The notes beneath the pieces are model-generated. The model was not told where the DNA came from. It saw only the letters and a list, made by a program, of their open reading frames with translations, and ran no database searches. This document shows, piece by piece, positions 92-32,372 of a stretch of 64,000 nt of DNA; position 1 is the first letter of the stretch; each line of letters starts with the position of its first letter. The stretch is from an uncultured Acidobacteriota bacterium. GTDB lineage: Bacteria > Acidobacteriota > Thermoanaerobaculia > Multivoradales > UBA5704. Location of the stretch: the NCBI GenBank assembly GCA_963755825.1, contig CAVWLA010000001.1:258808-322807 (forward strand), read 5' to 3'. Both the position numbers and the translations under genes were made by a program.

Positions 92-2641
92 TCAGCCCAG
101 GAAGCGGGCCAGATAAGGCGCGGTCCGGCTCCGGCCGGCCGCGGATTCCGCCACCTGCGAGGGCGTTCCGGCGGCGACCACACGGCCGCCTTCGTCGCCG
201 GCGCCGGGGCCGATGTCGATCACCCAGTCGCTGCCGGCGACGACCCGCATGTCGTGCTCGACGACGAGGACGGTGTTGCCGGCGTCGACCAGCCCATCGA
301 GCTGCCCCATCAGCCGGTCGACGTCCGCCGGATGCAGCCCAGTCGTCGGCTCGTCCAGCACGTAGAGCGTGTTGCCGCGCTGCACCCGCTGCAGCTCGGT
401 CGCGAGCTTGATGCGCTGCGCCTCGCCGCCGGACAGCTCGGTCGCCGCCTGGCCGAGCCGCAGGTAGCCGAGGCCGACCTGGCGCAGGATCTCCAGCGGG
501 CGATGGACCGGCGGCTCGTCGGCGAAGAACTGCCAGGCCGCGTCGACGGTCATCCCCAGCACGCCGGCGATGCTCTGGCCGCGGTACTCGATCTCGAGCG
601 TCTTCGCGTTGTACCGCGCGCCGTGGCAGGTGGGGCAGGCCGAGTAGACGCTGGCGAGGAAGAGCAGCTCGACGCAGAGGAAGCCCTCGCCTTCGCAGGT
701 CTCGCAGCGCCCCTTCGCCACGTTGAAGGAGAAGCGTCCGGCGTCGTAGCGGCGCGCCCGCGCCGCCCGTGTCGCGGCGAAGAGCCGGCGCACGGGATCG
801 AAGAGACCGGTGTAGGTCGCGAGATTGGAGCGCGGCGTCCGGCCGATCGGCTTCTGATCGACCGGCACCAGCCGCCGCAGGCTCTCCATCCCCGAGACGA
901 TCCGCCCGGCTCGACCGCGGACCTCGCCCGCCGGCGCTCCCCCATCGTCCTCCTCGACGTCGGCGGAGACCTCGCGGCCGAGGTGCTCCGCCACCAGCTC
1001 GACGAGAGCCTGGCTGACCAGGCTCGACTTCCCCGATCCGGAGACGCCGGTCACCGTCGTCAGCACCCCGAGAGGGAACGCCGCCTCGAGGTCTCGCAGG
1101 TTGTTGCGCGAGACGCCGGCGAGGCGGAGCCAGCCCTTCGGCGGCCGCGGCTCGCGGCGGTGCGACGGCGGCCCGGCGAAGAGATGGCGCCGGGTCACCG
1201 ACGCCTCGACCTGCGCCAGCCCTTCGGGCCGGCCGCTGTAGAGCACATGGCCGCCCTGCTCGCCGGCAGCTGGTCCAACGTCGACGATCCAGTCGGCACG
1301 GCGGACCACGTCGAGGTCGTGCTCGACCACGAAGAGCGAGTTGCCGGCGCGCTTCAGCTGCTCGAGCGCGGCGAGCAGCGCCTCGGTGTCCGCCGGATGG
1401 AGCCCGGCCGAGGGCTCGTCGAGCACGTAGACGACGCCGAAGAGGTTCGAGCGTACCTGGGTGGCGAGCCGCAGCCTCTGGAGCTCGCCCGGTGAGAGCG
1501 TCGGCGTGCTCCGTTCGAGCGCGAGATACCCCAGGCCGAGATCGAGCAGCACCGCGGCCCGCGCCACGAGGTCGGCGGAGATCCGCTGCGCGACCTGCGC
1601 CTTCTCCGGATGGCGCTTCGCGAGCTTGGCCATCGCCGCCGCCGTGCCGTCCGCGTAGGGCCGGAGCAGGCCCGCCAGGCGGACGATCGGCAGCCGGGAG
1701 ATGTCGGCGATGTCCAGACCTGCGAAGGTGACGGTGAGCGCTTCCGGACGCAGCCGCTTGCCGCCGCAGAGCGGGCAGTCGCGGCTCTCGAGGTACCGCG
1801 CCACCCGCTTCCGGATCGCCGGGCTCTGGGTGGTGGCGAAGGTGTGCAGCACGTAGCGCCGGGCGCTCGAGAAGTTGCCGTGGTAGTCGGGCGGCACCTT
1901 GCGCTTCCGGGCGGCGCGTATCTCGGCAGCGTCGAGGCCGCCATAGACCGGCACGACCGGCTGCTCGTCGGTGAAGAGGATCCACCAGCGGTCCTTCTCC
2001 GGCAGCTCGCGCCAAGGGCGGTCGACGTCATAGCCCAGCGTCGTCAGCATGTCGCGCAGGTTCTGGCCATGCCAGGCGGTCGGCCAGCCGCCGATCGCCC
2101 GCTCGCGGATGGTCAGCGAGTCGTCCGGCACCAGCGAGCGCTCGGTCGCCTCGTAGATCCTGCCCATCCCGTGGCAGCGGGGGCAGGCGCCCTGCGGGGT
2201 GTTGGTGGAGAACGACTCGGCCTCGAGATGGGCCTGGCCGGGCGGATACTTGCCGGCTCGCGAATAGAGCATGCGGAGGAGATTCGAGATCGTCGTGACG
2301 CTGCCGACCGACGAGCGCGAAGTCGGCGCGCCGCGCTGCTGCTGCAGCGCCACTGCCGGCGGCAGGCCGTCGATCTCGTCGACCTCAGGCACCCCCATTT
2401 GATCGAACAGGCGCCGGGCATAGGGGGCGACCGATTCGAGGTAGCGCCGCTGCGCCTCGGCATAGAGGGTGCCGAAGGCGAGCGACGACTTGCCGGAGCC
2501 GGAGATGCCGGTGAAGACGACGAGTGCGTTGCGCGGGATCTCGAGGTCGACGTTCTTGAGGTTGTGCTGGCGCGCCCCACGCACCCGCACGAAGCCGGTG
2601 AGCTCCGGCGCGACGGCTGCGGTATCCCCTGGAGCTGCCAC
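92..2641 (-). CDS. uvrA2: UvrA-like excinuclease ABC subunit A paralog (class II UvrA / UvrA2, 849 aa)
   Basis: 849 aa ORF with two ABC ATPase modules (Walker [13 protein letters not shown] and [10 protein letters not shown]), ABC signatures ([18 protein letters not shown]) and Zn-finger cysteines (CPRCHG, CETCEG, CPTCHG). It is about 90 aa shorter than canonical UvrA, consistent with class II UvrA lacking the UvrB-binding insert. Confidence 0.85.
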
Positions 2642-2718: not shown

Positions 2719-4365
2719 TCAGGGCGGCGCCGCCCTCCGCGCCTCGACCACCTCCGGACGTACCGGTTCGGCCCGACTGCACTGTGCAACGATCTGCGCG
2801 TAGAAGGCGCGCGCCTTGCCGGTGTCGCCAGCCAGGCCGGCGGCGCGCGCCGCGTTGTAGAGCCCGTTGAGGCGGTTGGGGGCGGCGGCGAGCGCCGTCT
2901 CGTATTCCGTCAACGCGTCGCTCGGGCGGTGCAGCTCGAGCAGGAGATCCCCCAGCAGCTCGCGCGCCGGCAGCAGCTCTCCCGGAGTGACCGGGTGCTT
3001 GCCGACCTTGTCCTGCAGATCCGCCGCCGCGCGCAGCAGCGCGAGCGCCGCGTCCGGCTTTCCCTGCGCCTGCGCCAGCCAACCCGCGGCGGAGAGGCGG
3101 AGCGATTCGACCTCTGCCGCCCAATCGTAGGGCCCCGCCGGCGGCGCCTTGACCAGTGCGTCGTGGATCGCCGCGAGCTGCGCCAGCCCGTCCTGGGCGA
3201 TCGCCAGGTCGCCGCCGCGCGCGCCGCCCAGGGAGCGTGCGAAATGGGTGGCGGCGAGCGCGTAGCCGTAGGCGTCCCAGGGTAGCCCCGCCTTGGGCGG
3301 CGCGAGCTTGGCGGCGTCCTTCCACTGGCGGCGCTCGAGAGCGTAGCGGGCCGGGACCGCGGTGAGCGCGTAGCCGGCGGCGAAGTTGGGCTCGTCGAAG
3401 GTCGTCGCCCTCGTGGTGCGCTCGAGGACCGCCCTGGCCTTGGCGTCCTCGCCCGTCTGCAGGTAGGCGTACTCGAGATAGTCGAGGGCGTGCATGGCGT
3501 CGAACGAGGTGGCGCCGGGGTGCATGGTGGCGACCAGCGCGTCGGCGGTGGCCGCGGAAGCGAGGTTCGACTGGATCGACTCCTCCCACAGACCGAGGCG
3601 GGTGAAGATGTGCGAGGGCATGTGCTGTGCGTGCGGCGACGCCGGGGCGATCTTGGCGTAGGCGCGCGCCGCCGGCAGCGCCAGACTGGCGAGCTGAGGA
3701 TAGTCGAGCGAGTGGATGAGGTAGTGGGCGATTCCCGGATGGTGAGGCTCGAGCGGCAGGAGACGATTGAGGATCTCGGCCGCCTGACGCTGCTGGCTGA
3801 AGCTGCGATCGTTCGGCGGCGCGGAGCCGAGGAGCGAGAGGGCGTAGAAGATCGATGCCTCGTGGTCGTCGGGGAACCGCTTGGCGACGTCCGCCATGGC
3901 GTCGCGGAAACCGGCGGCGCGCGAGCGGTGGTCGAGCTTGCCGGCGTCGTGGTAGAAGGCGACGATCGCACCGATGTAGGCACGCTCGCGCTCGCTGGCA
4001 CCGCCCATCGCCGCCGCCCTGTCCGCGGCCGCTCGCCCCTGGTCGAGCTCGGCCGCGGTCGGCGGCGCCCAGACCGGGTGGTAGAACGACATCGCGATGC
4101 CCCACTGTGCCATCGCGCACCCGGGGTCGCGGGCGGCGACGTCGGCGAAGGTCTGCCGCGCCAGCTCGTAGCCGAAGGAGTGGAGCAGCGCCGTGGCGCG
4201 ATCGAGCTCCGCCGCCACGGCGTCCCGGCAGGTCGTCGGGAAGCGCACCGAGCCGAGCTCGCCTTCGGCGGCCCCTGGCGCCGGGTGCTGGTGCTCCTGC
4301 GCCAGCGCTCCCGCCGGTCCCAGGATCGAGAGGAGCGCGATCGAAGTAAGCAGCGTACGATTCAT
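2719..4365 (-). CDS. Secreted tetratricopeptide-repeat (TPR) protein
   Basis: ORF 2719-4629 trimmed to internal ATG at 4363-4365 ([24 protein letters not shown] signal peptide, GGAG RBS upstream). Alpha-helical TPR-like repeats throughout. Overlapping 616 aa ORF in other frame is a GC artefact. Confidence 0.6.
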
Positions 4366-4680
4366 CGGAGACTCCTGGAGGGAGGTGCATCCCTGTGGAT
4401 CCGAGTGGACGCCGGAGCTCCGGCGCAGAACGGTGAGTGAGGGCGGCTCCTCGGCATATTGGGCTCCTTTCGATCCTAGTCCCAAGAAGGGATATGTCCA
4501 CGAGACCGGGCGACTCCAGGCGCCGAGTTTCTCGCCCATTGCGAAAACTTGCAAATCGATCAAGGCAGACCTTTTCGGCGATCTAAATCCAAGCATAGAA
4601 GACTGCTGTGGTAACCTTAAACAAGGCATGCGTCACGACGCGCCTGCCGGCACTGCCAACGATGGCGTGGAGGACACAAG

Positions 4681-4899
4681 ATGGCGAACGTCTACGTTGA
4701 ACCGCGACCGAAGGGGCGTCCAGAAGGAACCCCGATCACAGACTACGTACTCGAATCTGCGGGTGGCCAGACCATAGGGGATGTCTTCAAGACCCAGGCA
4801 GAAGCGGCTCGCTACGCCAGAGATCACGGCCATCATCCACTTTGTGCCCGCGTCCGTAATACCGACAAGGGCAACCCGGATCACTGGCGTTCCTGTTGA
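4681..4899 (+). CDS. Small DUF2188-like protein (72 aa)
   Basis: 72 aa ORF with GGAGGA RBS 6 nt upstream. The charged, Trp-terminal pattern (RVRNTDKGNPDHWRS) resembles DUF2188 small proteins. It lies in a locally lower-GC segment. Confidence 0.45.
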   Translation: MANVYVEPRPKGRPEGTPITDYVLESAGGQTIGDVFKTQAEAARYARDHGHHPLCARVRNTDKGNPDHWRSC

Positions 4900-5301
4900 A
4901 GTCGATCGCATGATTGCCTTGTCGCTGGTCGGCCTGTCCCCCCCCACGCCCGATGCTCGCGCCTTTCGCCGTCCTAAAGCGCGGGAGAAGTTGAAGCTTG
5001 CTGGCTTCCGCGCCATGGTTTGACCTCGGCCCGCTGCCGATACTGGTGAGAGAGATCTGGCGCGAAGTGGGAGCGGTAGAGATGCGTTGCCTTGCCGAGA
5101 GGAGGCCGGCGAGGCGGAGCTCTTCGACGATGCGCGAATAGCCCCCGTGCCGTTGGCGCCCTACGGCCGATAGCCGCGACACAGGGGGCCGGTCTCCCAC
5201 TGCGGATTAGCCAGAAGCTGGCTGGTAACAGTTTCGTGGTCAGCAGGTCTCGGTTTAATCCCGATCGTCGGCCCCAAAAGTCGGCAAAGCAGATCGCTCT
5301 T

Positions 5302-5590
5302 TCAGCGCGATCCGTGACCTTCCCTCAAGTCTGCGGCGTCGCCTTCTGGGGGAGGAGGGGGGGATAGCCGCGAGGCGGCAGTCGCCGGCGAATCGTAGAC
5401 GAAGACGTTCGCCTGGCCGCCGTACATTTGGAGCTGGCGGAGAGACGGCTTGCTGTCTCCATGCTGCCCAGGAGATCGTCCGACGGCGGCGCCGGCGCTA
5501 GATCCCGAGGGCGGCGAGGAACCGGCGACGAGGATCGCGCTGTTCAGGATACGGACCGTCCTGGTGAGAGTGGCTGGCGTGCTGCTCATG
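5302..5590 (-). pseudogene. Degenerate truncated paralog of the small membrane protein gene at 6623-6997
   Basis: Translation from ATG at 5588-5590 gives MSSTPATLTRTVRILNSAIL...SKPSLRQLQMYGGQANVF, matching the N-terminus of the 6623-6997 protein. It has lost the hydrophobic helix through an internal deletion and has a divergent tail. It sits inside direct repeat copy 1. Confidence 0.4.
5389..5590. repeat. Direct repeat copy 1 (~200 bp, imperfect, with ~15 nt deletion) of the 5' end of gene 6623-6997
   Basis: Sequence gaagacgttcgcctggccgccgtacatttggagctggcggag...gctcatg aligns with 6806-7000 at roughly 85% identity. Confidence 0.65.
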
Positions 5591-5838
5591 TTGACTTCCG
5601 GTCGCCCCGTCGAATGCGGACTGGTGACTCCGCTTGTCTCTCGACGAGGGACGACGCAGAAATAGCCTGGATTCCTGCTGAGCGCGCATTGAGTGACCCT
5701 ACCTGTTCGAGGGCCTCCAAGTGCGACGACTCGCCCGTCTCCGCCTGACGACCAGCGCCTTGGCCGCCGAGGTGTAGGAGTCGAGGCGCGCCGACCGATC
5801 AAGCATCACCACTGTCCGAAGAAGTCTAGGCTGACAAG

Positions 5839-6447
5839 GTGAAGTCCGTCGCGGAGGAGGAAGGCCAGCCCTTCGGCCGGCAGACGCGGTATTCTTGCTG
5901 GCCCATGCTTATCGACGTCAAAGGGCTAGTGAGCGCCGCTGTCAACGTCTGGCAGTTCCTGAAGGGCAGGAAGCAGCTCCTTGAGGTCGTCATCAGAAAA
6001 AACGATCTTGAATCTGAGTCTGATTGGGTTGGGCTCGTTCCTGCGTTTCTATCTCCCTCACCAAAGTCAGCGGCTGAGCGGACGGTGCTGGATGCTCATC
6101 TCTCGGAGGTGATCATCATCAACCACGAGGACAAGCCTACGGAAGTGCTACGACTTCAATTCGCCGTATTTTCTCGATGGCGGAGGGAAGTTCATCCCGT
6201 GGTCGTGAGGGAGGATAGGCTCACGGGAGGCCCTCGGATCGAGGCGCGGCACTCTCAGTCCTTTCAGGTTCGCTACGTCGCATCATTCGAGGGTCGGCTC
6301 CTCAGGAAGAGAGTGTTCCTCATCCTCAAGACTACGGGCCCTCGTGAAATACGAAAGAAGCTGCCTGACTACCTCTTCTTTAAGGCGCACAGCCCTGGTG
6401 ATCCCGTCTCAGGCACTGGCCGTGACGCTGACCAAATCGAAGCCTGA
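5839..6447 (+). CDS. Hypothetical protein, no recognisable domain (orphan gene in low-GC insert)
   Basis: 202 aa ORF with markedly lower GC and AT-rich codons compared with surrounding genes. It lies between the two direct repeat copies. An alternative start at MLIDVKG is possible. Confidence 0.4.
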   Translation: MKSVAEEEGQPFGRQTRYSCWPMLIDVKGLVSAAVNVWQFLKGRKQLLEVVIRKNDLESESDWVGLVPAFLSPSPKSAAERTVLDAHLSEVIIINHEDKPTEVLRLQFAVFSRWRREVHPVVVREDRLTGGPRIEARHSQSFQVRYVASFEGRLLRKRVFLILKTTGPREIRKKLPDYLFFKAHSPGDPVSGTGRDADQIEA

Positions 6448-6622
6448 GATCCCAGAGGAAAGATCAAGCGGCGGCCCGCGCTTGCTTGCACCAGTTGCGA
6501 TTGCCCGGGCGGTCGGCTCGAACTTCTTGGCCAACTGCTCTGGCTCGCAGTCTGCTCGGACCAGCTCCATCGTGGTCCCGCGACGAACAGACTCAGGGCG
6601 CTCGTCGGAGCGCCAGGATCGA

Positions 6623-6997
6623 TCATCCGAGATCGTTCTTGGTGTGCTCCGGCTCCGGGGCTGCGGCTTCGCCTTCCATGGGAGGCAGGGGGATGGCGGC
6701 CAGGCGGCAGCCGCCGGCCGCGATGGCGGCGAGGACGGCGACGGTGACCGCCAGGCGGGGGCCCTGCCAGAGGCTGCCGATCCATTGGCGGATCTCGTAG
6801 GCGAAGACGTTCGCCTGGCCGCCGTACATCTGGAGCTGGCGGAGGGACTGCTTGCTGTCCTCCATGCTGCCCAGGGGATCGTCCGGCGGCGGCGGCGAGG
6901 TGCGGTAGATCACCAGGGCGGCGAGGAGGCCGGCGGCGAGGATCGCGTTGCTCAGGATGCGGAGCGTCCTGGTGCGGGCGGCTGGCGTGATGCTCAT
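6623..6997 (-). CDS. Small membrane protein, hypothetical (124 aa, one predicted TM helix)
   Basis: ATG at 6995-6997. Hydrophobic segment LRILSNAILAAGLLAALVIY. The 5' ~200 bp is duplicated at 5389-5590. Confidence 0.45.
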   Translation of the reverse strand: MSITPAARTRTLRILSNAILAAGLLAALVIYRTSPPPPDDPLGSMEDSKQSLRQLQMYGGQANVFAYEIRQWIGSLWQGPRLAVTVAVLAAIAAGGCRLAAIPLPPMEGEAAAPEPEHTKNDLG

Positions 6998-7000
6998 GGG
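6796..7000. repeat. Direct repeat copy 2 (intact) of the ~200 bp segment
   Basis: Matches 5389-5590, see copy 1. Confidence 0.65.
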
Positions 7001-7282
7001 TTGGCTCCCCTCGCCGCGCCGCCGCTCGCGAGCTGCCCGGCGATCGGCATGCGGGGGATTCTATTGGAGACGGCGTGGGAGACAGCGGGCGTAACCTGCC
7101 ATATCCTGATAGCGTCTCTGTGGGCAGGCTCCGAGGGTCCGCCCCGGAACAAACCCTCGTTCTGAGCCGTTGTTTTCCACCGGATGTACCTCGGCGCGGC
7201 GCCCGCGGTCAGTTGTGGCGCTTCCCTTGCACTGTTCGATCGGGGCGGCTGTCTCGGGCCGTCCGTTTCCGGCGAGGATTCC

Positions 7283-8632
7283 ATGGGTAAAAAGGGCTGG
7301 GTGGTGATCGCGGCGATCGTCGCGGTGGTTCTCGCTGGAGGGATCTACTTCGAGCGGCACAAGACGCCGGAGCCCAGATTCCGCACCGTCAAGGTGGAGC
7401 AGGGAGACGTGGTGGCTACCGTCACCGCCTCCGGCACGCTGTCGGCGGTCACCACGGTGCAGGTGGGCAGCCAGGTCTCGGGGATCGTCGCCAAGCTCTT
7501 CGTCGACTTCAACTCCGAGGTGAAGAAGGGGCAGCTCCTGGCCGAGCTCGACCCGACGCCGTTCCAGGCGGCGGTCGACCAGCAGCAGGCGAGCGTGCAG
7601 AAGGCCAAGGTCGACCAGGTGAGCTCGCAGATCGCCTGGGGGCGGTCGAAGAAACTCCTGGCGCAGGGCCTGATCGCGCAGTCTGACTACGACACCGCCA
7701 CGGCGACGCGCGACGGCGCCGTCGCGGCGGTCAAGGTGGCTCAGGCGTCGCTCCAGCAGGCGCTCGCCAACCTCACCTATACGAAGATCCTGTCGCCGAT
7801 CGACGGCATCGTCGTCGACCGCGAGTACAACGTCGGGCAGACGGTGGCGGCCTCGTTCCAGGCGCCGACCATCTTCACCATCGCGCAGGATCTGGCGAAG
7901 ATGCAGGTGCTGACCAACATGGACGAGGCCGACATCGGCGGCATCAAGGTCGGCCAGAGCGCCAACTTCACCGTCGACGCGTTCCCCGACCAGACCTTCC
8001 GCGGCTCCGTGTCGCAGATCCGGCTGTCGCCGCAGACGGTGCAGAACGTCGTCACCTATCCCGTCGTCATCGACGTCGCCAACGTCGACTTGAAGCTCAA
8101 GCCCGGGATGACCGCCGACGTCCAGGTGCCGGTCGACGTGCGCCACGACGTGCTGCGGGTGCCGAACGCGGCGCTGCGCTTCAAGCCCGATCCCGCCGAC
8201 CTGGTGCCGGGAGCGGTGACGACGGTGACCGGCGGCGGCGGGACGGGCAAGCCGGGCGACCAGGCGGCTCAGGGCACCCAGGCGGCTCTCGGGACCGAGA
8301 GTGGCGCCGGGGGCGCGGCGTCTGGAGCCGCCGGAGCCGCCGGAGCGACCGGACATGGGGGCCGCGGCGCCGGCGGGGCGAGCCGCAGCGGCCGCACCGG
8401 CGGCGGCTCCCGCCAGGCCATCGTCTACGTCCAGGTCGAGAACGGCAAGCTCAAGCCGGTCCAGGTGCGCACCTCGATCACCGACGGCTCGTTCACCGCG
8501 GTGACCTCGAAGGATCTCAAGGTGGACGACGAGGTGGTCGTCGGCCTCGCCACGGCCAAGGCCGGCACCTCGTCGACCTCGCGGCCGCCGACCCTCGGCG
8601 GCGGCGGACCCGGCCGCGGCGGACCGCGGTAG
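7283..8632 (+). CDS. macA: Efflux ABC transporter periplasmic adaptor subunit (HlyD/MacA family)
   Basis: ORF 7184-8632 trimmed to ATG at 7283 (MGKKGWVVIAAIVAVVLAGG membrane anchor). It has coiled-coil and beta-barrel/lipoyl motifs typical of membrane fusion proteins (TKILSPIDGIVV, ADVQVPV). Gly-rich C-terminal tail. Confidence 0.85.
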   Translation: MGKKGWVVIAAIVAVVLAGGIYFERHKTPEPRFRTVKVEQGDVVATVTASGTLSAVTTVQVGSQVSGIVAKLFVDFNSEVKKGQLLAELDPTPFQAAVDQQQASVQKAKVDQVSSQIAWGRSKKLLAQGLIAQSDYDTATATRDGAVAAVKVAQASLQQALANLTYTKILSPIDGIVVDREYNVGQTVAASFQAPTIFTIAQDLAKMQVLTNMDEADIGGIKVGQSANFTVDAFPDQTFRGSVSQIRLSPQTVQNVVTYPVVIDVANVDLKLKPGMTADVQVPVDVRHDVLRVPNAALRFKPDPADLVPGAVTTVTGGGGTGKPGDQAAQGTQAALGTESGAGGAASGAAGAAGATGHGGRGAGGASRSGRTGGGSRQAIVYVQVENGKLKPVQVRTSITDGSFTAVTSKDLKVDDEVVVGLATAKAGTSSTSRPPTLGGGGPGRGGPR

Positions 8633-9429: not shown

Positions 9430-10652
9430 CCAAGTCGCAGAACATCCTCAAGGTCGCCTTCGGCGCCCTCGGGCGCAACAAGCTGCGCTCGCTGCTGACC
9501 ACCCTCGGCATCATCATCGGCGTCGCCTGCGTGGTGGCGACGATCGGCATCGGCGACGGCGCGCGCATCCAGGCGCAGGACCAGCTGCGCTCGCTGGGCA
9601 CCAACTTCCTGATGATCTTCCCCGGCGCCATCACCTCCTCCGGGGCGCGCAGCGGCTTCGGCGGCAGCTCCAAGCTCTCCGAGGACGACGTCGACGCCAT
9701 CCGCCGCGAGGTGCCCGCCGCCGCCTACGTCTCGGCCTCCAACCGCACCGTGGCGCAGGTCATCTACGGCAACCAGAACTGGTCGACGACGATCCAGGGG
9801 GCGCAGGTCGACTGGCCGCTCATCCGCTCCTGGAACATCGGCGTCGGCCAGTTCTTCTCCGACCAGGACGACCGCGCCGCGGCGAAGGTCTGCGTCCTCG
9901 GCACGACGGTCGCCGAGAACCTCTTCGGCAGCGAGGACCCGATCGGCAAGACCATCCGCATCAAGAACCTGCCGTTCCGGGTGGCGGGCGTGCTCGAGGC
10001 CAAGGGCGGCTCGACCAACGGCGCCGACCAGGACGACACCGTCATCGCGCCCTACGAGACGGTGCGCAAGAAGCTCCTCGGCACCACCGCGGTCGGCACC
10101 GTCCTGGTCTCGGCGACCTCGAACGACAAGGTCGACGAGGCGCAGAACGAGATCACCGCGCTCCTCGAGCAGCGCCATCGCATCAACCGCGCCGCCGGGC
10201 AGGAGGACGACTTCGCCATCCGCTCGCAGACGGAGATGCTGGAGCAGGCGGCGCAGCAGTCGCAGACCATGAGCTACCTGCTGTGGTCGATCGCCGGCGT
10301 CTCTCTCCTCGTCGGCGGCATCGGCATCATGAACATCATGCTGGTGTCGGTCACCGAGCGCACGCGGGAGATCGGCATCCGCATGGCGATCGGCGCCAAG
10401 GGCGGCGACATCCGCGCCCAGTTCCTCGTCGAGGCGGTGGTGCTGGCGATCTCCGGCGGCGCCATCGGCATCGGCGTCGGGATCGGCATCCAGCGCGGCG
10501 TCGCCCGCTTCGCCGGCTGGCCGGTCGCCGTGCAGGCGAGCGCCATGGGGCTCGCCTTCGCCTTCTCGGCGCTCATCGGCATCACCTTCGGTTTCTACCC
10601 GGCGCTCAAGGCGTCACAGCTCGATCCCATCGAAGCGCTGCGCTACGAGTAG
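9426..10652 (+). CDS. ABC transporter permease, FtsX/MacB-like (408 aa)
   Basis: N-terminal TM helix, MacB-like periplasmic domain, and a C-terminal FtsX domain with 3 TM helices ([12 protein letters not shown] motif). Start overlaps upstream stop (ATGA). Confidence 0.9.
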
Positions 10653-10659
10653 CGGACCG

Positions 10660-12719
10660 ATGTCCGACACCTCGTCAGCCGCCGCCGGGCACGACTTCAT
10701 CCGCGACCTGGTCGCCCGCGACCGCGCCGCCGGCAAGCACGGCGGGAGAGTGGTCACCCGCTTTCCGCCGGAGCCTAACGGCTACCTCCACATCGGCCAC
10801 GCCAAGTCGATCTGCCTCAACTTCGGCCTCGCCCTGGAGAACGCCGGCAGCTGCCACCTCCGCCTCGACGACACCAACCCGGAGACCGAGGATGCGGAGT
10901 ACGTCGACGCCATCCAGCGCGACGTGCGCTGGCTGGGCTTCGACTGGGGGAGAGCTTCTTCCACGCCGCGGACTACTTCGAGCGGCTCTACGACTTCGCC
11001 GTCGAGCTCATCCGCCGCGGCAAGGCCTACGTCTGCACCCTCTCCGAGGACGAGATCCGCGCCTACCGCGGCACCGTCACCGAGCCGGGCCGCAACAGCC
11101 CCGGCCGCGACCGCTCCGTCGAGGAGAACCTCGACCTCTTCGCCCGCATGCGGGCGGGGGAGCTCGCCGACGGCGCCGCCGTGCTGCGCGCCAGGATCGA
11201 CATGGCCGCCGCCAACATGAAGCTGCGCGACCCGCTCCTCTACCGCATCAAGCGCGCCACCCACTACCACCGCGGCGACGCCTGGTGCATCTACCCGATG
11301 TACGACTTCGCCCATCCGCTCTCCGACGCCATCGAGGGCATCACCCACTCCCTCTGCACGCTCGAGTTCGAGAACAACCGCGACATCTACGACTGGCTGG
11401 TCGACACCCTGCCCTTCGCCGACCCGCCGCGGCAGATCGAGTTCGCCCGCCTCAACCTCACCTACACCCTGATGAGCAAGCGCAAGCTCCTCGAGCTCGT
11501 CGAGCGCCGGCTGGTGGCGGGCTGGGACGACCCGCGCCTGCCGACCCTCGCCGGCCTGCGCCGGCGCGGCTTCACCCCGGCGGCGCTGCGCGACTTCTGC
11601 GAGCGGATCGGCGTCGCCAAGGCGAACAGCACGGTGGACGTGGCTCTTCTCGAGGCCTGCCAGCGCGAGGATCTCAACCCCCTGGTGCCGCGCCTCCTCT
11701 GCGTGCTGCGGCCGCTCAAGCTGGTGATCGAGAACTATCCCGAGGACGAGGTCGAGGAGCTCGACGCGCCGCTCTACCCGCACGACGTGCCGAAGGAGGG
11801 GGAGAGGAGGATCCCCTTCTCGCGCGTCCTCTACATCGAGCGCGACGACTTCGCCGAGCTGCCGCCGAAGGGTTTTCACCGCCTCGCCCCGGGCCGCGAG
11901 GTGCGCCTGCGCTACGCCTACCTCGTCCGCTGCACGGGCGTCGTCCGCGATGCCGCGAGCGGCGAGGTCGTCGAGGTGCGCTGCACCTACGACCCGACCA
12001 CCCGCGGCGGCACCGCGCCGGACGGCCGCAAGGTGCCGGGCACCCTGCACTGGGTGTCCGCGGCGCAGTCGGTGACGGTCGAGGTGCGGCTCTACGACCG
12101 GCTCTTCCGCGTCGAGCGGCCGGATCTCGAGGAGGGCGGCTTCGAGGCCTGTCTCAATCCGCGCTCGCTGGAGATCCTCACGGGTAGCCGGCTCGAGCCG
12201 GCGGCGCTCGACGCCGGGCTCGGCGAGCGGCTGCAGTTCGAGCGCCAGGGGTACTTCTACCGCGACCCCGTCGATTCGACCCCCGAGCGCCCGGTGTTCA
12301 ACCGCATCGTGCCGCTCCGCGACTCGTGGGCGCTGGAGGCGGCGGCAGGGCAAAAGGCGGCCGAGGCGTCGCGGCCTGCGGCGCCGGATCGACCGACCCC
12401 GCAAAAGCCTGCGAAGGAGGCCGAGCCGAAGGTCGCCGAGCCGCTTTCGGAGGACGAGATCGCCGCGCTCGACGCCATGCGCCCGACGGTGGGCCCGCTC
12501 GTCGCGGGCGTCCTCGCCGACCATCCCGCCGAGGTCGAGAAGCTCCGCGGCGGCAAGGCCGGGCTGCTCGGCTTCCTCGTCGCGCAGGTGATGAAGCGGG
12601 TGGCGGCGGGTGGCGGCAAGGCCAATCCGAAGCTGGTCAACGCACTCCTCGGCGAAGCGCTCGGCTCGCCTGCCGCGCCGACCGCTGCGCCCGCCGGCGA
12701 TCCATCCGCGGCCGGCTAG
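10660..12719 (+). CDS. glnS: Glutaminyl-tRNA synthetase with appended C-terminal YqeY/GatB-like domain; apparent frameshift in a G5 homopolymer at 10946-10950
   Basis: ORF 10660-11220 matches the GlnRS N-terminus ([20 protein letters not shown] motif). ORF 11148-12719 in the -1 frame continues GlnRS ([32 protein letters not shown] motif). Translating across 10942-10960 with one extra G restores a continuous GlnRS ([20 protein letters not shown]). The last ~120 aa ([25 protein letters not shown]) resemble the GatB/YqeY tail. Confidence 0.85.
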
Positions 12720-12738
12720 CCCCGCGGCACCGCGTCTC

Positions 12739-14682
12739 TCAGCCGCGCCAGTCGAGGATTCTGTCGACCGTCTGCTGCGTCAGCGCGTGGTAGCCGGGGC
12801 GCGCCTGGCCGTAGATGCGGAGCGCCCGCTCGGTCCCCGCCGGGGTCTTCGCCAGCTCGCTGTAGAGCGGCTTGACGAGCTTGCGCCGGCCGACCGCGGT
12901 CAGGAACCGCTCGAGCGTCGGATAGGCCGGCTCGTAGCGGCTCTGGATCGAGCGCTCGAGCCAGACGGAGAGGATCTCGTCGTTGCCGCTGGCGGTGAAG
13001 TGGAAGGCGGCGTCGAGGGCGGCCATCCGCTCGGCGGGCACCGGGCGCTGGAGCTTGCCGAGGAAGTGGAGCCACTCCTGGGCCGTCCAGCCCTGCGTCG
13101 CCAGCTGCTCCGGCGCCGTGCCGGCGGCGAGCGCGGCGACCTGCAGGTCGACCTTGGCGAAGGCGGCGGAGATCACCCGCGGCGCGTTCGCCGGCAGCCC
13201 CGGCCCATGGATCCAGGCCCTGGCGTCGATCCGCGCCGCCACCTGCGGATCGTTCAGGAGATGCTGGTCGAGGTAGGACTCGAAGCCCGCGGTGTCCATC
13301 GAGCGGAAGGCGTGGCCGTCGAACCAGCCGCGGAGGAAGGCGTCGAGGCGGTCGCGCCCCGCCGCCTGCTCGAGGGCGAAGAGGAAGAGCGCCCCCTTCT
13401 CGTAGGCGACGTCGTTGACCGCGTCGTCGGGATCGCGGCCCGCCATGTCGAGATGGAGCCGGGTGTCGGGGCTGTCCGGCCCCAGCTCCTGGAGGGTCGC
13501 GTCGAGGCTCTCGCGCCCCAGCGCCGCCTCCATCTCCTCGAGCGGACGGCCGTAGAGCGCCTCGACGATGCGGCGCTCGAAGTAGACGGTGAAGCCCTCG
13601 TTCAGCCAGAAGTCGTTCCAGCTCGCGTTGGTCACCAGGTTGCCCGACCAGGAGTGCGCCAGCTCGTGGGCGACGAGGGCGACGAGCGAGCGGTCGCCGG
13701 CGAGGATGGTCGGCGTGGCGAAGGTGAGGCGCGGATTCTCCATGCCGCCGAACGGATAGCTCGCCGGCAGGATGAGCAGGTCGTAGCGGCCCCAGCGGTA
13801 GGGACCGTAGAGCTTCTCGGCGGCGGCGATCATCCGCGGCGTGTCGGCGAGCTCCCAGGCGGCGCGCTCGATGACCGCCGGCTGCGCGTAGACGCCGCTC
13901 CGCTCGGCGCCGCCGGCGGCCGGGAACGCCCTGAACTCGAGGTCGCCGACGGCCAGCGCCAGCAGGTACGAGGGGATCGGCTGCGGCATGCGGAACTCGT
14001 AGCGGCCGTCGGCGTGCTTCGTCTGCGGGTTCTCGGCGCTCATCACGGCGAGGAGGTCGGGCGGCACGGTGACCGTCGCCTCGTAGGTCATCCGCACGCT
14101 CGGCGTGTCCTGGCAGGGGATCCAGGTGCGCGCCAGGATCGCCTCCGACTGGCTGTAGAGGAACGGCTTGGCGCCGCCGGCCTGCTCCGGGGTGAGCCAC
14201 TGCAGCGCCGCCGACTCGGGCCGCGTCGCGTAGTCGACGTTCACCCATTGCGTCCGCGGCGTGATCTCGACCTCGAGGTCGCGGCCGAGGAAGTGGACCG
14301 GCTCGCCGAGATGGAAGGAGGCTCTGGTCTTGCCGTCGTCGAGCGTCACGGCGCGGATGTCGAGGTCGCGGGTGTCGAGGTGGAGGCGGAGGCCCTCGTG
14401 CGGCGCCAGGTGCAGGCTGGCGCGGCCGCTGAGCGTGCGGCTGGCGAAATCGACCCGCAGGGTGAGCTTCAGGTGGTCGACCGACGCCTCGGCCGGCCGC
14501 GCGAACGAGTGCGGATCGCCTGCCGGCTGGCCGGCCGCCGGGCTCGCGGCCTGCGCGCCGTCCGCCGGCGAGGGCTGAACGACCTCGGGCCGGGGCGGCC
14601 GGCCGGAGGTGGCGCAGGCGACGAGGAGCGGCAGGGCGGCGAGCAGGAGTGTCGAGACGAGCGGCAGGTCGAACGGCTTCAT
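12739..14682 (-). CDS. M1-family zinc aminopeptidase, lipoprotein (leukotriene A4 hydrolase-like)
   Basis: 647 aa with lipoprotein signal (LLVACAT). GAMEN-like GGMENP and zinc motif HELAHSWSGN...E. The overlapping 673 aa ORF in another frame is Pro/Arg-rich GC artefact. Confidence 0.8.
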   Translation of the reverse strand: MKPFDLPLVSTLLLAALPLLVACATSGRPPRPEVVQPSPADGAQAASPAAGQPAGDPHSFARPAEASVDHLKLTLRVDFASRTLSGRASLHLAPHEGLRLHLDTRDLDIRAVTLDDGKTRASFHLGEPVHFLGRDLEVEITPRTQWVNVDYATRPESAALQWLTPEQAGGAKPFLYSQSEAILARTWIPCQDTPSVRMTYEATVTVPPDLLAVMSAENPQTKHADGRYEFRMPQPIPSYLLALAVGDLEFRAFPAAGGAERSGVYAQPAVIERAAWELADTPRMIAAAEKLYGPYRWGRYDLLILPASYPFGGMENPRLTFATPTILAGDRSLVALVAHELAHSWSGNLVTNASWNDFWLNEGFTVYFERRIVEALYGRPLEEMEAALGRESLDATLQELGPDSPDTRLHLDMAGRDPDDAVNDVAYEKGALFLFALEQAAGRDRLDAFLRGWFDGHAFRSMDTAGFESYLDQHLLNDPQVAARIDARAWIHGPGLPANAPRVISAAFAKVDLQVAALAAGTAPEQLATQGWTAQEWLHFLGKLQRPVPAERMAALDAAFHFTASGNDEILSVWLERSIQSRYEPAYPTLERFLTAVGRRKLVKPLYSELAKTPAGTERALRIYGQARPGYHALTQQTVDRILDWRG

Positions 14683-15683
14683 CGATTGGGGGCTCCTGGG
14701 GTCGAGCGGTTCGGGTCGCCGGCAGCGCCGGCGTCACCGGCCTCGTCGGCTGCCATGGCGGCTGCCACGGCGCCGCCCGGCCAGAGCGCCGGCTCGCCGC
14801 GGTCGAGCGCGGCGTGCAGGGCCTGCACGATGGCGAAGACCTCGCGGCGGCTGATCTTGGCGCCGGGGCCGGCGGCGGCGACGCGATCGAGGGTGGCGTG
14901 GGCGAGATGGACGGGGAGGGCGTTGAAGGCGACGAGGCCGCGCTCGGCGCCGGCGCGCTGGAGATCGAGGAGGTAGCGCTCTGCCTCGGCGAGGTCGCGG
15001 CGCGCCAGCGCCATGACCGCCGCCCGCTCGACCGCCGGCGGCAGGTAGCGCCTGCCCTCCTTGGCGTCGGCGTCCGAGTCCTTGAGGATGTTGACCAGCT
15101 GCAGCCCCTCGCCGAAGATCGGCGCCCGCGCGCGGAGCGCCGCGGCGAACGGCGCCAGCTCCGGCCGCCCGAGGAGGAAGAGGTCGGTCAGCAGCTCGCC
15201 GACGATGCCGGCGACGACGTAGCAGTAGGCGCGCAGGTCGGCGAGGTCGGCGAGCTCGAGGCGGCCGTCGTCGCCTGCGCGCTCGACGTAGCGCTCCATC
15301 CCGGCGATGGTCCGCCGCGTGTGGTCGCGGATGAGCGCGACCGCCGCGGGGCGCAGAGCGAAGAAGCTGTCGAGGACGAAGGGCACCTCGGCGAGCAGGC
15401 TGCGATAGCCCGGCTGGGCGCAGGGGACCGCGCCGCTCCAGGCGCCCGCCGCCACCGCAATCTCTCCGGCATCCGCCGCCGGGCCGTCGAGCATGGCGTC
15501 GAAGCGGTCGAGCGCCGCGATCTTCTCGGCGCGCTGCCAGCCGGCGGCGTCCTCGAAGGTGTCGGCGATGCGGAAGAGCAGGTAGGCGAGCGTCACCTCG
15601 CTCCGCGTCGGCTCGGGGAGGAGCGGGATGGAGAGCGCGAAGGTGCGGCTCGAATGGAGCAGGAGCTGTTCCAGATCGGCCAT
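14679..15683 (-). CDS. Squalene/phytoene synthase family protein (trans-isoprenyl diphosphate synthase head-to-head)
   Basis: ORF 14679-16817 trimmed to ATG 15681-15683 (MADLEQLLLHSSRTFALSIPLL). SQS_PSY signatures (YCYVVAGIVGELLT, DxxED-like FRIADTFED, QLVNILKD). Last gene of the isoprenoid operon. Confidence 0.75.
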   Translation of the reverse strand: MADLEQLLLHSSRTFALSIPLLPEPTRSEVTLAYLLFRIADTFEDAAGWQRAEKIAALDRFDAMLDGPAADAGEIAVAAGAWSGAVPCAQPGYRSLLAEVPFVLDSFFALRPAAVALIRDHTRRTIAGMERYVERAGDDGRLELADLADLRAYCYVVAGIVGELLTDLFLLGRPELAPFAAALRARAPIFGEGLQLVNILKDSDADAKEGRRYLPPAVERAAVMALARRDLAEAERYLLDLQRAGAERGLVAFNALPVHLAHATLDRVAAAGPGAKISRREVFAIVQALHAALDRGEPALWPGGAVAAAMAADEAGDAGAAGDPNRSTPGAPNR

Positions 15684-15775
15684 GGCTCGCAGCGAAGGAT
15701 ACCAGCTCGGCCGCGCTGGACGCGGCGAAGGGAGGGCCGGAGAGCAGGGCGGAGAGAGTACGTTGCGGCGCCCCG

Positions 15776-16651
15776 TCAGGAGGCGCGGCTGACGACGACG
15801 GTGCCGGGCACCTCGTCGCCGGCGAGGGCGCTCTCCAGCAGCCCGGGCACCTGTCCATCGGCGATCAGCGAGGGGACACCGAGGTCGGCGAGGGCGAGCG
15901 CCGTCTCGACGCGGTGGCGCATGCCGCCGGTGACGTCGGTGCCGCGCGCGGCGCCGATCGCGGTGCCGGCGCTGTGCAGGTCGCTCCGCGTCAGGCGGGC
16001 GAGGGTGGAGCCGTCGCGGTCGAAGACGCCGGCGGTCTCGCCCAGCCAGATGGCGCGGCGGACGGTGATGCCGCGCTCGGGGAGGCGCTGGGCGAGGAGA
16101 GCGAAGGCGCTCTCCGTCGAGCAGATGGAGACGCCGCGGTCGCGGTCCATCACCACGTCGCCGTAGACGACCGGCAGGAGCCCGCGCGCCAGCGCCAGGA
16201 GGAGCGGCTCGTCGGCGAACGTCGCCGGCGAGCCCGCCGCCGCGGTCATCGCGCTCGACGGGCTGATCGAGAAGGGGAGGGCGCCCGCCGCGGCGAGCGC
16301 CGCCACCACCTGCCAATGGAGCGCCGCGGCGCGCTCCTGGGTGATCGAGATGCCTTCGAGCTGAGCGCGCGACGCAGGGGCGCCGGTGCCGCCGGCGAGG
16401 CCGCTCGTCAGCCCGCTGGTCAGCCGATACTTCGCGGCGGCGACATGGCCGAACGAGCCGCTGCCGTGGCCGACGATCACCCGCGCGCCGCGCGCGGTGG
16501 AGGCCGCGGCGCCGGCGGCGATCTCCTCGGCCAGCCGCTCGATCACCTCGGGGCGCGCCGTCTCCGGCTGCTCCTTGTCGGTGATCAGGCTGCCGCCGAG
16601 CTTGACGAGGATGACGTCCAGGGCTTCGCTCCGGTCTCGCGGGCTCAGAAT
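15776..16651 (-). CDS. ipk: Isopentenyl phosphate kinase (amino-acid-kinase fold); start codon uncertain, no in-frame ATG/GTG/TTG
   Basis: C-terminal ~290 aa of ORF 15776-18841: LDVILVKLGGSLITDK, VIVGHGSGSFGH, then nucleotide-binding Gly-rich segments typical of IPK and fosfomycin-kinase-like AAK enzymes. Abuts the decarboxylase stop (16660). Only CTG/ATT codons are available near the expected start. Confidence 0.7.
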   Translation of the reverse strand: MLSPRDRSEALDVILVKLGGSLITDKEQPETARPEVIERLAEEIAAGAAASTARGARVIVGHGSGSFGHVAAAKYRLTSGLTSGLAGGTGAPASRAQLEGISITQERAAALHWQVVAALAAAGALPFSISPSSAMTAAAGSPATFADEPLLLALARGLLPVVYGDVVMDRDRGVSICSTESAFALLAQRLPERGITVRRAIWLGETAGVFDRDGSTLARLTRSDLHSAGTAIGAARGTDVTGGMRHRVETALALADLGVPSLIADGQVPGLLESALAGDEVPGTVVVSRAS

Positions 16652-16659
16652 CGCGGGGC

Positions 16660-17667
16660 TCAGAAGAGGTGGTCGGAGTCGGTCTCCGGCCCGGCGCCGA
16701 CGCCGTCGCGGATGACGAAGCCGACGACCGGCAGGCTGTCGAGCCGCGCCGCGACGTCGTCGACCGATTCGGCCTCGCAGATGACGTGGACATTGGCGCC
16801 GGCGTCCATCGTCGCATAGGCCTGCAGGCCCTCCTGGCGCAGCTCGCGCACGGCGCGCAGGACGCCGACCGTCCCCGGGCTCCAGTAGAAGACCGGCGGC
16901 TGCGACGACATGGCGATCAGGTGGAGGTCGATCGCCTCCTCTTCGAGCACGGGGCCGAGGAGCGCGATGTCGCGCGCCGCGATCGCCCGCCGCACCTGCT
17001 CGAGGCGCGCCGGGAGGAGCTCCTGGCGTTGCGGGTAGTACGGGCTGGTGATCGCCCGCCGATGCCCTTCGAGCGAGGAGACGACCTTGGGGCCGATCTC
17101 GACGACGGCGATGACGTCGCAGAGGTCCCAGTGCTCGGCGCCGGCGATCTGCACCGCGCCGGGGTCGTCGGCCTTCTTCTCCTTCGGGCCCGGCCACTCG
17201 ACGAAGCCGCCGAAGACCGAGCGCGCCGCCGACCCCGAGCCGCTGGCGCGGGCGAGGCGCGACAGCTCGGTCGGCGGCGCCCCCTTGCCGAGGGCGCCCG
17301 CCGCGGCGAGCGTCAGGGCGGCGAAGCCCGAGGCCGAGGAGGCGAGACCGCCGGCGGTGGGGAAGCCGTTCTTGGTCGCCACCCGGAAGGCCGCGCGGCT
17401 CCCCGCCCAGGCGCGGATGTTGTCGAGCTGGCGGCGCATGCGCTCCTGGAAGTCGTGCGCCGGGGTGCGGAAGCCGCCGTCGGGCTCGGAGAGCCAGACC
17501 TCGTCCTTCGTCCCCTCGGGCAGCAGCTCCACCGTGCAGCGGGTGACGCAGCTCTCCAGGGTCATCGAGATCGACGGGTTCTGCGGGATGGCGCGCTCGA
17601 GATCGCGGGCGCCCCAGTACTTGATGAAGGCGATGTTCGCCGGGGCTTGGACGGTCGTCTTGCTCAT
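16660..17667 (-). CDS. mvaD: GHMP-family mevalonate (di)phosphate decarboxylase (MVD or phosphomevalonate decarboxylase)
   Basis: 335 aa, MSKTTVQAPANIAFIKYWG N-terminus and GLASSASGFAAL GHMP motif. ATGA overlap with the mevalonate kinase stop at 17664-17667. Confidence 0.85.
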   Translation of the reverse strand: MSKTTVQAPANIAFIKYWGARDLERAIPQNPSISMTLESCVTRCTVELLPEGTKDEVWLSEPDGGFRTPAHDFQERMRRQLDNIRAWAGSRAAFRVATKNGFPTAGGLASSASGFAALTLAAAGALGKGAPPTELSRLARASGSGSAARSVFGGFVEWPGPKEKKADDPGAVQIAGAEHWDLCDVIAVVEIGPKVVSSLEGHRRAITSPYYPQRQELLPARLEQVRRAIAARDIALLGPVLEEEAIDLHLIAMSSQPPVFYWSPGTVGVLRAVRELRQEGLQAYATMDAGANVHVICEAESVDDVAARLDSLPVVGFVIRDGVGAGPETDSDHLF

Positions 17668-18900
17668 CGAGGGGTCTCCCGCCGCAGGCCGGCGGCGCCG
17701 AATCGAACCGGGCGAACCGGCAGGGTCGCGAGGCAGGGCAGGCTCTCGCGGTGGCCGCCCGCGGCGCCGGAATCGACGCTCGAGTCAGCGCTGGAACCGG
17801 CGCTGGAATCGGCGCTGGAATCGGCGCTGGAATCGGCGCTGGAATCGGGATGATAAACCAGGAGCGCGCCGGCACCGCTCCCGGAGAGCGCGCCGGCGCC
17901 GGAGATCTTGGCGGCGCCGCCGGCGGCCTCGATCTGTCGCACGATCCGCGCCACCGGCGCCGGCACCACGCCGAGCGCTTCGAGGCACTCCTCGAACTCG
18001 GCGAGCAGGTCGCGGATCGGCGCCGCGGTCGCGGCGCCGATCTCGAGGTCGGCGCGCAGCGCGACGGTCGCCGCCGCCATGCGGTCGAGGAGGCGCTCGG
18101 TGCCGGCGCGGTCGCGAGCCAGGCGCTCGCGGACCGCCGCCACCACGGCGCCGGTCGCCTCGGCCGGCGCGCCGGTGTCGTAGACGGCGAGGCGGTCGAG
18201 GGCGGTCGAGCGCAGCGCGATCGGCTCGACGGCGAGGCCGCCGCGGTCGCCCGGCGCCGGGGCGGTCCGTGCCGCCCACAGCAGGCCGCCGCGGAGCACC
18301 GTCGCCGCGTCGACCCCCGAGGGAGTGCCGTGCTGGCGGCGCTCGACCTCGTGCACCAGCCGCTCGACGGTCGCCAGGTCGGGCGCCGCGCCGCGCAGCG
18401 CCAGATAGCCCGCGACGACCGCCGCCGCCGCCGCCGCCGAGCTGCCGAAGCCGGAGCCCGGCGGCAGGTCGGAGTCGATGCGGAGCCGCAGCCCCGGCGG
18501 ATCGCCGGCGCCGGGAGGATCATCAGCGGAGCCCTCGCCGGTCTGCATGAGGTGCGCCGCCGCCTCGCCGAGCGAGACCTTGACGAGGTGCACCGGGTCT
18601 TCGCCGCGGAGCTGGCGGAAGGACGGCGCGCCGGAGCTCGCGGCATAGCCTGCCCAACGCTCGCGCGCCTGCCGCGCGTAGGCGAGGATCTCCTCCCAGC
18701 TGGTCTCCGCCGCGCAGCCGAGATCGGGGAGCTCGAGGCGGACGGATGGCGGCTCGCCGGGCGATGCGAGCGGGAAGAAGCGGGCGGTGAGGCGGAGATC
18801 GATCGCCGCGACCAGCGCCGGCCGGCCGTAGACGACGGCATGCTCGCCCATCAGGATGAGCTTGCCGGGGGTGGAGACGGCGAGCGGCCCGGAGCTCCGC
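17664..18900 (-). CDS. mvk: Mevalonate kinase; true start upstream of annotated ATG (conserved PGKLIL-GEHAVVYG motif spans the ATG), approximate 5' end
   Basis: GHMP kinase motifs PPGSGFGSSAA and KISGAGA. Translating upstream of the first ATG (18849-18851) in frame gives ...LAVSTPGKLIL-M-GEHAVVYG, the canonical MVK N-terminal strand, so translation must begin before 18851. No ATG/GTG/TTG is present between there and the hmgA stop (18958). Confidence 0.85.
17765..17848. repeat. 12 bp tandem repeat (cgctggaatcgg x ~6) inside the mvk coding region, encoding (SSAD)n
   Basis: Direct reading of 17789-17848 shows 5 perfect 12-mers plus degenerate flanking units. Translated on the minus strand as DSSADSSADSSADSSAGSSADSSVDSG, inserted after the MVK Gly-rich loop. 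Confidence 0.7.
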
Positions 18901-18957
18901 GCCGGACCGCCGGTCGCGGCGTCGGAGCCGGGGAGAAGGCCGTCGAGCAGGGGAGCC

Positions 18958-29290: not shown

Positions 29291-29314
29291 CGGTCGGCCT
29301 CCGTCAGTGCTCGC

Positions 29315-30625: not shown

Positions 30626-30637
30626 CTTTGACTACTC

Positions 30638-32266: not shown

Positions 32267-32372
32267 GATCGAATCCCTCCGATGAGGATGAGCGCTCGCA
32301 TCGACTTCGCACCCACAGTAGCATCGAAACCACGGCGAGCCGCCGGGGGCCGTCTGCTACACTTCCGCGGCC

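Follow-up and report, generated by a model that had tools for sequence, protein, structure and literature searches.

Layout and composition of the islet

We analyzed a GC-poor islet in the genome of an uncultured Acidobacteriota bacterium, located between a TPR gene and a gene for a small membrane protein, here called p124. The whole 64,000-nt stretch of DNA that was analyzed is referred to as the window; the islet covers positions 4366–6622 of it, that is, the ~2.26 kb from the start of the TPR gene (4365) to the stop codon of p124 (6623). The GC content of the window has a mean of 0.714 (standard deviation 0.044 in segments of 500 nt) and drops to 0.555–0.65 across ~4400–6400. An earlier note, made from the letters of the DNA alone, had reported lower GC both for this region and for a 202-residue open reading frame (ORF) within it, here called p202, and both observations were borne out. 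The host genes have GC contents of 0.71, 0.53, and 0.92 at codon positions 1, 2, and 3 (GC1, GC2, and GC3), compared with 0.64, 0.42, and 0.655 for p202 and 0.66, 0.52, and 0.59 for p72, a 72-residue gene near the left end of the islet. The codon-position profile of p202 is coding-like in shape, with values far from those of the host.

On its left side the islet is bordered by the TPR gene (2719–4365, minus strand; 548 aa), whose start at 4365 agrees with the called protein on record. The region upstream of this gene (4366–4680) already has a GC content of ~0.6 and contains one sigma-70-like site (4500–4473, minus strand). It is followed by the intact p72 gene (4681–4899, plus strand), which has homologues on plasmids, by ~390 nt of GC-poor DNA (4900–5290) in which our searches detected neither a coding signal nor a homologue, and by a pseudogene copy of p124 (~5291–5612, minus strand). 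A spacer of 226 nt (5613–5838), without homology to the promoter or leader of the intact p124, precedes p202 (plus strand), which starts at 5839 or 5905, ends at 6447, and carries a rare predicted β-sandwich domain at residues ~46–185. The remnant of an OrfA gene from an insertion sequence (IS) of the IS3 family (6467–6603, minus strand), ~45 codons long with one frameshift near 6499, lies between p202 and the intact, host-like p124 gene (6623–6997, minus strand), which encodes a 124-residue protein with two transmembrane (TM) helices. The leader and promoter region of p124 occupies 6998–7080 (minus strand) and contains a 'CAATAGAAT' −10-like box. The ~900 bp that had been described as apparently non-coding include the pseudogene; outside it, 4900–5290 and 5613–5838 are unassigned DNA, for which no match was obtained in Pfam, PHROGs, NCBIfam, or by tblastn, nor by blastn against plasmids. 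The islet as a whole gave no blastn match to plasmids, and no Rfam family was detected in 3500–8500.

The gene caller of the source genome placed no gene in 4366–6622. The TPR protein and p124 are on record from the source contig, whereas the exact p72, 202-residue, and 180-residue readings are absent from a collection of ~15 billion predicted proteins. In an independent Logan contig the gap, likewise of 2258 nt, is again without a called gene. Real ORFs of atypical composition were skipped here by the source's gene caller.

A GGAGG Shine-Dalgarno sequence precedes the ATG of p72 by 7 nt. A tblastn search against plasmids returned 24 records, 22 of which cover at least 80% of the protein, with a best E value of 2e-23; the best matches span all 72 residues at 56–62% identity. 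The plasmids are proteobacterial, with hosts that include Enterobacter, Cronobacter, Klebsiella, and Ralstonia, some of them are 4.8-kb ColE1-type replicons, and the homologues are annotated as a 73-aa hypothetical protein. By these comparisons p72 is a real, intact, plasmid-associated gene. No match to p72 was found in the viral contigs scanned, and PADLOC gave only an E value of 0.029 to PDC-S16. The proposed DUF2188-like character of p72 corresponds only to a sub-threshold Pfam match: residues 22–52 align with the core of the model (PF09954; E = 0.008), but at 16.7 bits the match falls short of the gathering cut-off of 22, and membership is not established. On a Cronobacter plasmid (L170, CP045780; 4001–6586), the p72 homologue lies ~450 nt from genes for a SLATT-domain protein and a nucleotidyltransferase. 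SLATT and nucleotidyltransferase genes form a known type of conflict gene pair.

The p124 repeats and the IS3-family remnant

The direct repeats of ~85% identity that had been noted at this locus are real and larger than first described. BLASTN aligns 5393–5612 with 6795–7021 at 85.1% identity (228 columns, of which 9 are gaps; E = 3.8e-69), and the ungapped blocks given by a repeat finder are 87–94% identical. The start-to-start spacing of the blocks changes from 1408 to 1407, 1403, 1402, and finally 1329 nt, which places three small indels (1, 4, and 1 nt) and a 73-nt deletion in the upstream copy. Positions 6719–6794 of the intact copy are without a counterpart upstream and correspond to this deletion; beyond it the homology picks up again (5359–5389 versus 6688–6718) and by eye extends to ~5291 versus 6631, at most 10 nt from the p124 stop codon. 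At the other end the alignment stops ~20 nt upstream of the pseudogene ATG. What is repeated is thus the complete 124-aa gene together with ~20 nt of leader; it is indeed a small membrane-protein gene that is duplicated, as the earlier note had it, but not its 5′ end alone. The upstream copy had also been described as a decayed paralog without its TM segment, and this is what we found: the small indels wreck TM1, and the 73-nt deletion takes out residues ~68–93 including TM2, so that both predicted TM helices are gone. Because homology runs over the gene and the lesions disrupt its frame, the upstream copy (~5291–5612) is a pseudogene of p124.

The pseudogene and the intact gene differ at 14, 19, and 20 sites in codon positions 1, 2, and 3, respectively. 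When the changes were polarized with three orthologues, 31 of 43 fell on the pseudogene branch and 7 on the branch of the intact gene, with 5 ambiguous. The decay of the pseudogene is neutral, with the codon-position bias in substitutions lost. The 31 changes on its branch comprise 17 from G/C to A/T, 9 from A/T to G/C, and 5 from G/C to G/C; scaled by base content they imply a neutral equilibrium GC of ~0.56, which equals the lowest GC of the islet, although the sample is tiny and the value indicative only.

The intact p124 gene is host-like (GC3 of 0.92, host codon score of +0.52). It has 27 homologues of 51–87% identity, one of them named from a Thermoanaerobaculia metagenome-assembled genome, and is conserved in genomes of this type; Pfam detected no domain in p124 or in any of the 27. 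At every locus examined p124 is single-copy, and its neighbors differ in nearly every genome examined. One subclade (L082 and L172) has the order AIRS, p124, glycosyltransferases. In L173 p124 adjoins a NUDIX gene; in L085 it lies between MiaE and a PIN-MazE pair followed by SNF2/MmeI-type genes, in L081 between a lanthipeptide dehydratase and TumE/HVO_A0114, and in L171 next to a fragmented MacAB-like cluster. Among orthologues, homology at the DNA level takes in the gene as far as its stop codon, where it ends, and an ~80-nt leader that contains a 'CATAGAAT' box. The window (6998–7080) and L081 (9880–10000) share this −10-like box and ~60 nt of 5′ leader despite completely different neighbors, and L085 shares the box with a shorter leader. 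The promoter and leader that are kept in L081 are missing from the pseudogene copy. These observations are compatible with p124 being a poorly syntenic core gene. The idea that p124 is a mobile unit or a hotspot marker was rejected as unsupported, p124 being single-copy at each locus and its gene order stable in the L082/L172 subclade.

Accessory genes occur downstream of p124 at two of these loci. L081 has the toxin-antitoxin pair TumE/HVO_A0114 just downstream (10452–11076), and L085 has the PIN/MazE pair followed by large SNF2-helicase and MmeI-type methyltransferase genes (10415–19116). Accessory genes may thus land repeatedly in the 3′ flank of p124. In L171 (GCA_037975565.1; 2990–7264), as in the window, p124 and a macA-macB-like cluster are divergently oriented; the cluster is only ~38% identical to that of the window and is split into many short ORFs, representing either pseudogenes or assembly frameshifts.

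The segment between p202 and p124 was reconstructed by joining two adjacent frames of 6467–6603 (minus strand) over the frameshift, giving a fragment of 46 residues. In a tblastn search against plasmids the frame-repaired fragment matched 33 records with E values of 2e-5 to 4e-4 at 52–57% identity, the alignments crossing the repaired junction. The features beneath the matches are annotated as IS3 family transposase, and on a Bosea plasmid (NZ_CP126308) the match lies at codons 13–47 of an IS3 transposase coding sequence. The segment is thus a remnant of IS3-family OrfA that covers the N-terminal helix-turn-helix and is truncated on both sides. It resembles known IS3-family elements in the ~35–38 residues that match the helix-turn-helix of OrfA, and differs from them as a frameshifted relic differs from an element: Pfam detected no OrfB/DDE domain (rve) in any islet fragment, the repeat scan gave no inverted-repeat pair bracketing 6467–6603, and no target duplication was found. 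The relic abuts the p124 stop codon, leaving no space for the left end of an IS, and the junction would therefore be a scar of deletion or rearrangement. A second, OrfB-like IS3 piece at ~5050–5150 (minus strand) was considered and rejected, since Pfam, PHROGs, NCBIfam, and tblastn all gave nothing there.

The note's specific proposal was a cassette captured between duplicated target sequence, or a decayed integrative element. If a site-specific element or cassette had inserted with duplication of its target (the p124 5′ end), this would account for a GC-poor ORF flanked by direct repeats. What is repeated, however, is a full gene, present once intact and once decayed; the repeats exceed 300 nt, are 85% identical, and include frameshifts, in contrast to short exact att or target duplications, and no att-like short repeats are present at the islet. 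Nor do the repeats flank the islet, as the GC-poor DNA and p72 run ~900 nt past the left repeat. Pfam, PHROGs, and NCBIfam detected no integrase or recombinase in the three ORFs of the islet or in its longer stop-to-stop fragments, Pfam detected neither in those flanking ORFs that were scanned (as far as 2.6 kb on the left and most of 13 kb on the right), and the 64-kb window contains no tRNA or tmRNA. We consider this explanation very improbable. Prophages and genomic islands with att repeats share with the islet the presence of GC-poor DNA beside a direct repeat overlapping part of the host's own coding sequence; here there is no integrase or tRNA, a whole diverged gene is repeated, and the island is unbounded by the repeats. 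The broader claim that the region is the footprint of an insertion or recombination event is supported: the islet is accessory and of foreign composition, and its scars are the IS3 OrfA remnant, the plasmid-type small gene, and the pseudogene.

p202 and its domain family

The earlier note had described p202 as an orphan without a recognizable domain. The latter holds, as the domain has no match in Pfam, NCBIfam, PADLOC, or PHROGs, nor among PDB sequences in a profile search. The former does not: a word-indexed protein search gave no match, yet an exhaustive phmmer search against 1.84 billion cluster representatives identified 19 relatives at E values of 1e-3 or below, nine of them at 1e-10 or below. 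The closest, P0028, is a protein of 183 aa with 64% identity to p202 (E = 4.5e-60). No match to p202 was found in the viral contigs scanned or by tblastn against plasmids. Over 160 ungapped codons, the ratio of nonsynonymous to synonymous substitutions (dN/dS) between p202 and the P0028 gene is 0.34, with a dS of 0.66. The lineage has therefore been under purifying selection for most of the p202–P0028 divergence, and p202 is a real gene with a family of its own.

The common domain comprises ~130 aa (p202 residues ~46–185) in which N, H, P, T, E, and G residues, forming the loop 'INHDDKPTE', are invariant or nearly so; p202 retains every one of them. AlphaFold2 with an alignment of 20 sequences predicts an all-β structure of eight strands with a mean pLDDT of 88.9 and a pTM of 0.79, and the domain is confidently predicted to be a β-sandwich; prediction from the single p202 sequence was uninformative (pLDDT of 34). 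Fold searches against the PDB and BFVD returned only generic sandwiches. The fold class is shared with Ig-like and cupredoxin-like sandwiches such as PCuAC copper chaperones, ApaG, the luminal LEA-2-like domain of TMEM106B, and DUF4352, and the layout of a TM helix followed by a sandwich in TMEM106B is also that of the stand-alone relatives of p202.

The start of p202 is likely to be the ATG at 5905 (180 aa) rather than position 5839 (202 aa). Compared with P0028, ~14 residues of the N-terminal TM helix are missing, and 'MLIDVKGL' encoded from ATG 5905 is aligned with 'MPISWKGL' of P0028; p202 has lost the membrane anchor. A frameshift at the 5′ end was considered and rejected. MAFFT places a 5-nt gap there, but frame-by-frame Smith-Waterman alignment of the P0028 N terminus was not significant in any frame, and the in-frame reading from ATG 5905 fits at least as well as the frameshift model, neither being statistically supported. 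No ribosome-binding site is evident at 5839 or 5905. With neither an effector domain nor an anchor, p202 is regarded as a probable stranded or remodelled copy of the family.

Among the 19 relatives the domain recurs fused to independent effector and NTPase modules of immune proteins, located C-terminal to the partner except in P0039, where it is N-terminal. The partner is a TIR domain (TIR_2) in P0035, P0039, and P0046, an Mrr-type nuclease (Mrr_cat or Mrr_cat_2) above the Pfam cut-off in P0040 and P0043, and DUF4365 in P0033. P0031 carries a KGGVGR AAA ATPase (NF047398, E = 8e-41, scanned on this protein only; also the PADLOC candidate PDC-M28B), a weak Mrr-type match of 16.8 bits, below the cut-off of 22, and the β-sandwich. 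P0034 has a KGGVGR-type ATPase, assigned from the N terminus shared with P0031 and from CbiA/ParA-type Pfam hits, joined to the β-sandwich with no nuclease match. P0043 combines the Mrr nuclease, the β-sandwich, and NB-ARC in this order, so a position of the sandwich between effector and STAND NTPase is possible. The architectures of these three multi-domain relatives are unusual. Five relatives (P0028, P0029, P0042, P0044, and P0045) have only N-terminal hydrophobic helices, and two stand-alone relatives adjoin toxin-antitoxin genes (Unstab_antitox in one case and HicA/DUF1902 in the other). A literature search on 'KGGVGR' found nothing.

This fusion pattern is typical of conflict and immunity proteins, and the guess of the earlier note that p202 has a defense or accessory function therefore gains indirect support, although PADLOC-DB 2.0 has no model matching p202, or p124. 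In the fused proteins (P0031, P0033–P0035, P0039, P0040, P0043, and P0046), which are single-chain conflict proteins built on TIR, Mrr/DUF4365, KGGVGR, or NB-ARC/STAND modules, the domain most likely serves in sensing, targeting, or assembly. What differs in p202 is that it consists of the sandwich module only, unmatched in PADLOC, Pfam, NCBIfam, and the PDB. A bolder proposal, which we regard as unlikely, is that the domain with its N-H-D..P-T-E loop is an undescribed, pluggable immune sensor or targeting module and that the copy in the window is a functional soluble variant acting as a decoy or trans-acting partner. Were this so, the domain would plug onto a TIR, nuclease, KGGVGR-ATPase, or STAND chassis, or onto a membrane anchor. 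It is the domain family, rather than this locus, that merits follow-up; it is very rare (19 of 1.84 billion cluster representatives) and uncovered by the domain libraries used, and it was reached from an ORF that the source's gene caller and the word-indexed search had both missed.

A related question is whether p202, alone or together with p72, is a working accessory or defense gene that maintains the islet, p202 being a soluble variant of the membrane-anchored members. The domain is intact over 160 codons without a stop or frameshift, all the conserved family residues are kept, and the dN/dS value is low; p72 is likewise intact, has a good ribosome-binding site, and has the plasmid homologue beside the SLATT and nucleotidyltransferase genes described above. 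Against this, p202 is without an effector domain, an anchor, or an evident ribosome-binding site at both candidate starts, was passed over by the gene caller of the source genome, and matches no known defense model, and its dN/dS mostly reflects history before its arrival in this genome. The two genes are also 940 nt apart with an opposite-strand pseudogene between them. On this balance a working p202, or p202–p72 pair, seems distinctly unlikely.

Origin of the islet and its surroundings

Taken together, these features are interpreted, with moderate confidence, as a decaying accessory islet in the 2.26-kb interval between the TPR gene and p124, as opposed to a bounded integrative element, the repeats being a gene and its pseudogene. 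Foreign DNA, among it an IS3-family IS and plasmid-type small genes, would have entered the space downstream of p124, and p202 may be of such foreign origin. A second copy of p124 would have arisen at this place, duplicated locally or brought in with DNA of a related bacterium. Later deletions would have trimmed the IS to ~45 codons of orfA, and the second p124 copy would have lost 73 nt and its reading frame, with spacers left behind. The non-functional parts would then have drifted to lower GC while two ORFs survived, p72 intact and p202 stranded or remodelled.

The main rival to the decaying accessory islet is a Campbell-type integration, in which a circular element from a related bacterium, with its own p124 homologue, recombined with the chromosomal p124. 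The element would have come to lie between two copies of p124, one of which then decayed, and would now be reduced to p202 plus the IS3 remnant. Such an event would explain why the direct-repeat copies bracket exactly p202 and the IS3 remnant, and p124 orthologues elsewhere do adjoin toxin-antitoxin and restriction-like cargo. In neighbor-joining trees the pseudogene groups with L081 and L085 in 329 of 500 bootstraps and with the resident gene in 165 of 500, also in line with an imported copy. By raw distance, on the other hand, the pseudogene is nearest the resident p124 (0.130, compared with 0.150–0.206 to the orthologues), and long-branch attraction may account for the majority placement. 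The repeats also leave GC-poor DNA and p72 outside, and no replication, transfer, or recombinase gene remains in the islet. We therefore consider a Campbell-type event improbable. The pseudogene itself may have originated either way, duplicated locally or imported from a related lineage.

Several observations weigh against the decaying accessory islet. The searches returned no relative that has an empty site or shared synteny here, and the insertion is therefore deduced from composition and homology and not seen as an indel. The TPR protein searched against one-genome-per-species contigs gave best matches of at most 62% identity without p124 or MacAB nearby, MacA searched against metagenome contigs gave best matches of 69–72% on contigs that do not exceed 2.5 kb and lack p124, and no locus combining these flanks with p124 was found in the genome and metagenome contigs. 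The IS3 assignment rests on ~35 aligned residues after one hand-repaired frameshift, and Pfam HTH_Tnp_1 was not detected in the fragment. About 600 nt of the islet have no explanation, the bootstraps are split over the placement of the pseudogene, and p202, with its intact domain, is possibly functional. Finally, with an equilibrium near 0.56 in a genome of 0.71 GC, neutral decay also lowers GC here; low GC alone is therefore not proof of foreign origin and may reflect decay as well.

The decaying accessory islet is comparable to the pseudogenes found by IS remnants in bacterial intergenic 'junk', with which it shares a frameshifted and deleted gene copy, even codon-position substitutions, AT-biased drift, and a truncated IS; it differs in that the duplicated unit is almost exactly one small gene. 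As a typical scar of insertion, duplication, and deletion, the islet illustrates that a drop in GC accompanied by long repeats is not necessarily the sign of a bounded mobile element.

The islet is embedded in housekeeping genes, including those for a UvrA-like ABC ATPase, the TPR protein, MacA/MacB, glutaminyl-tRNA synthetase, an M1 peptidase, and mevalonate-pathway enzymes. The UvrA-like ABC ATPase (92–2641, minus strand; 849 aa), whose gene borders that of the TPR protein, has a UvrA DNA-binding domain but not the full length of canonical UvrA, of which it may be a paralogue. A second GC-poor islet is present in the window at 29300–32300, with a GC content of 0.58–0.63 compared with the mean of 0.714; it contains two minus-strand ORFs of 436 aa (29315–30625) and 542 aa (30638–32266), both with signal-peptide-like N termini.

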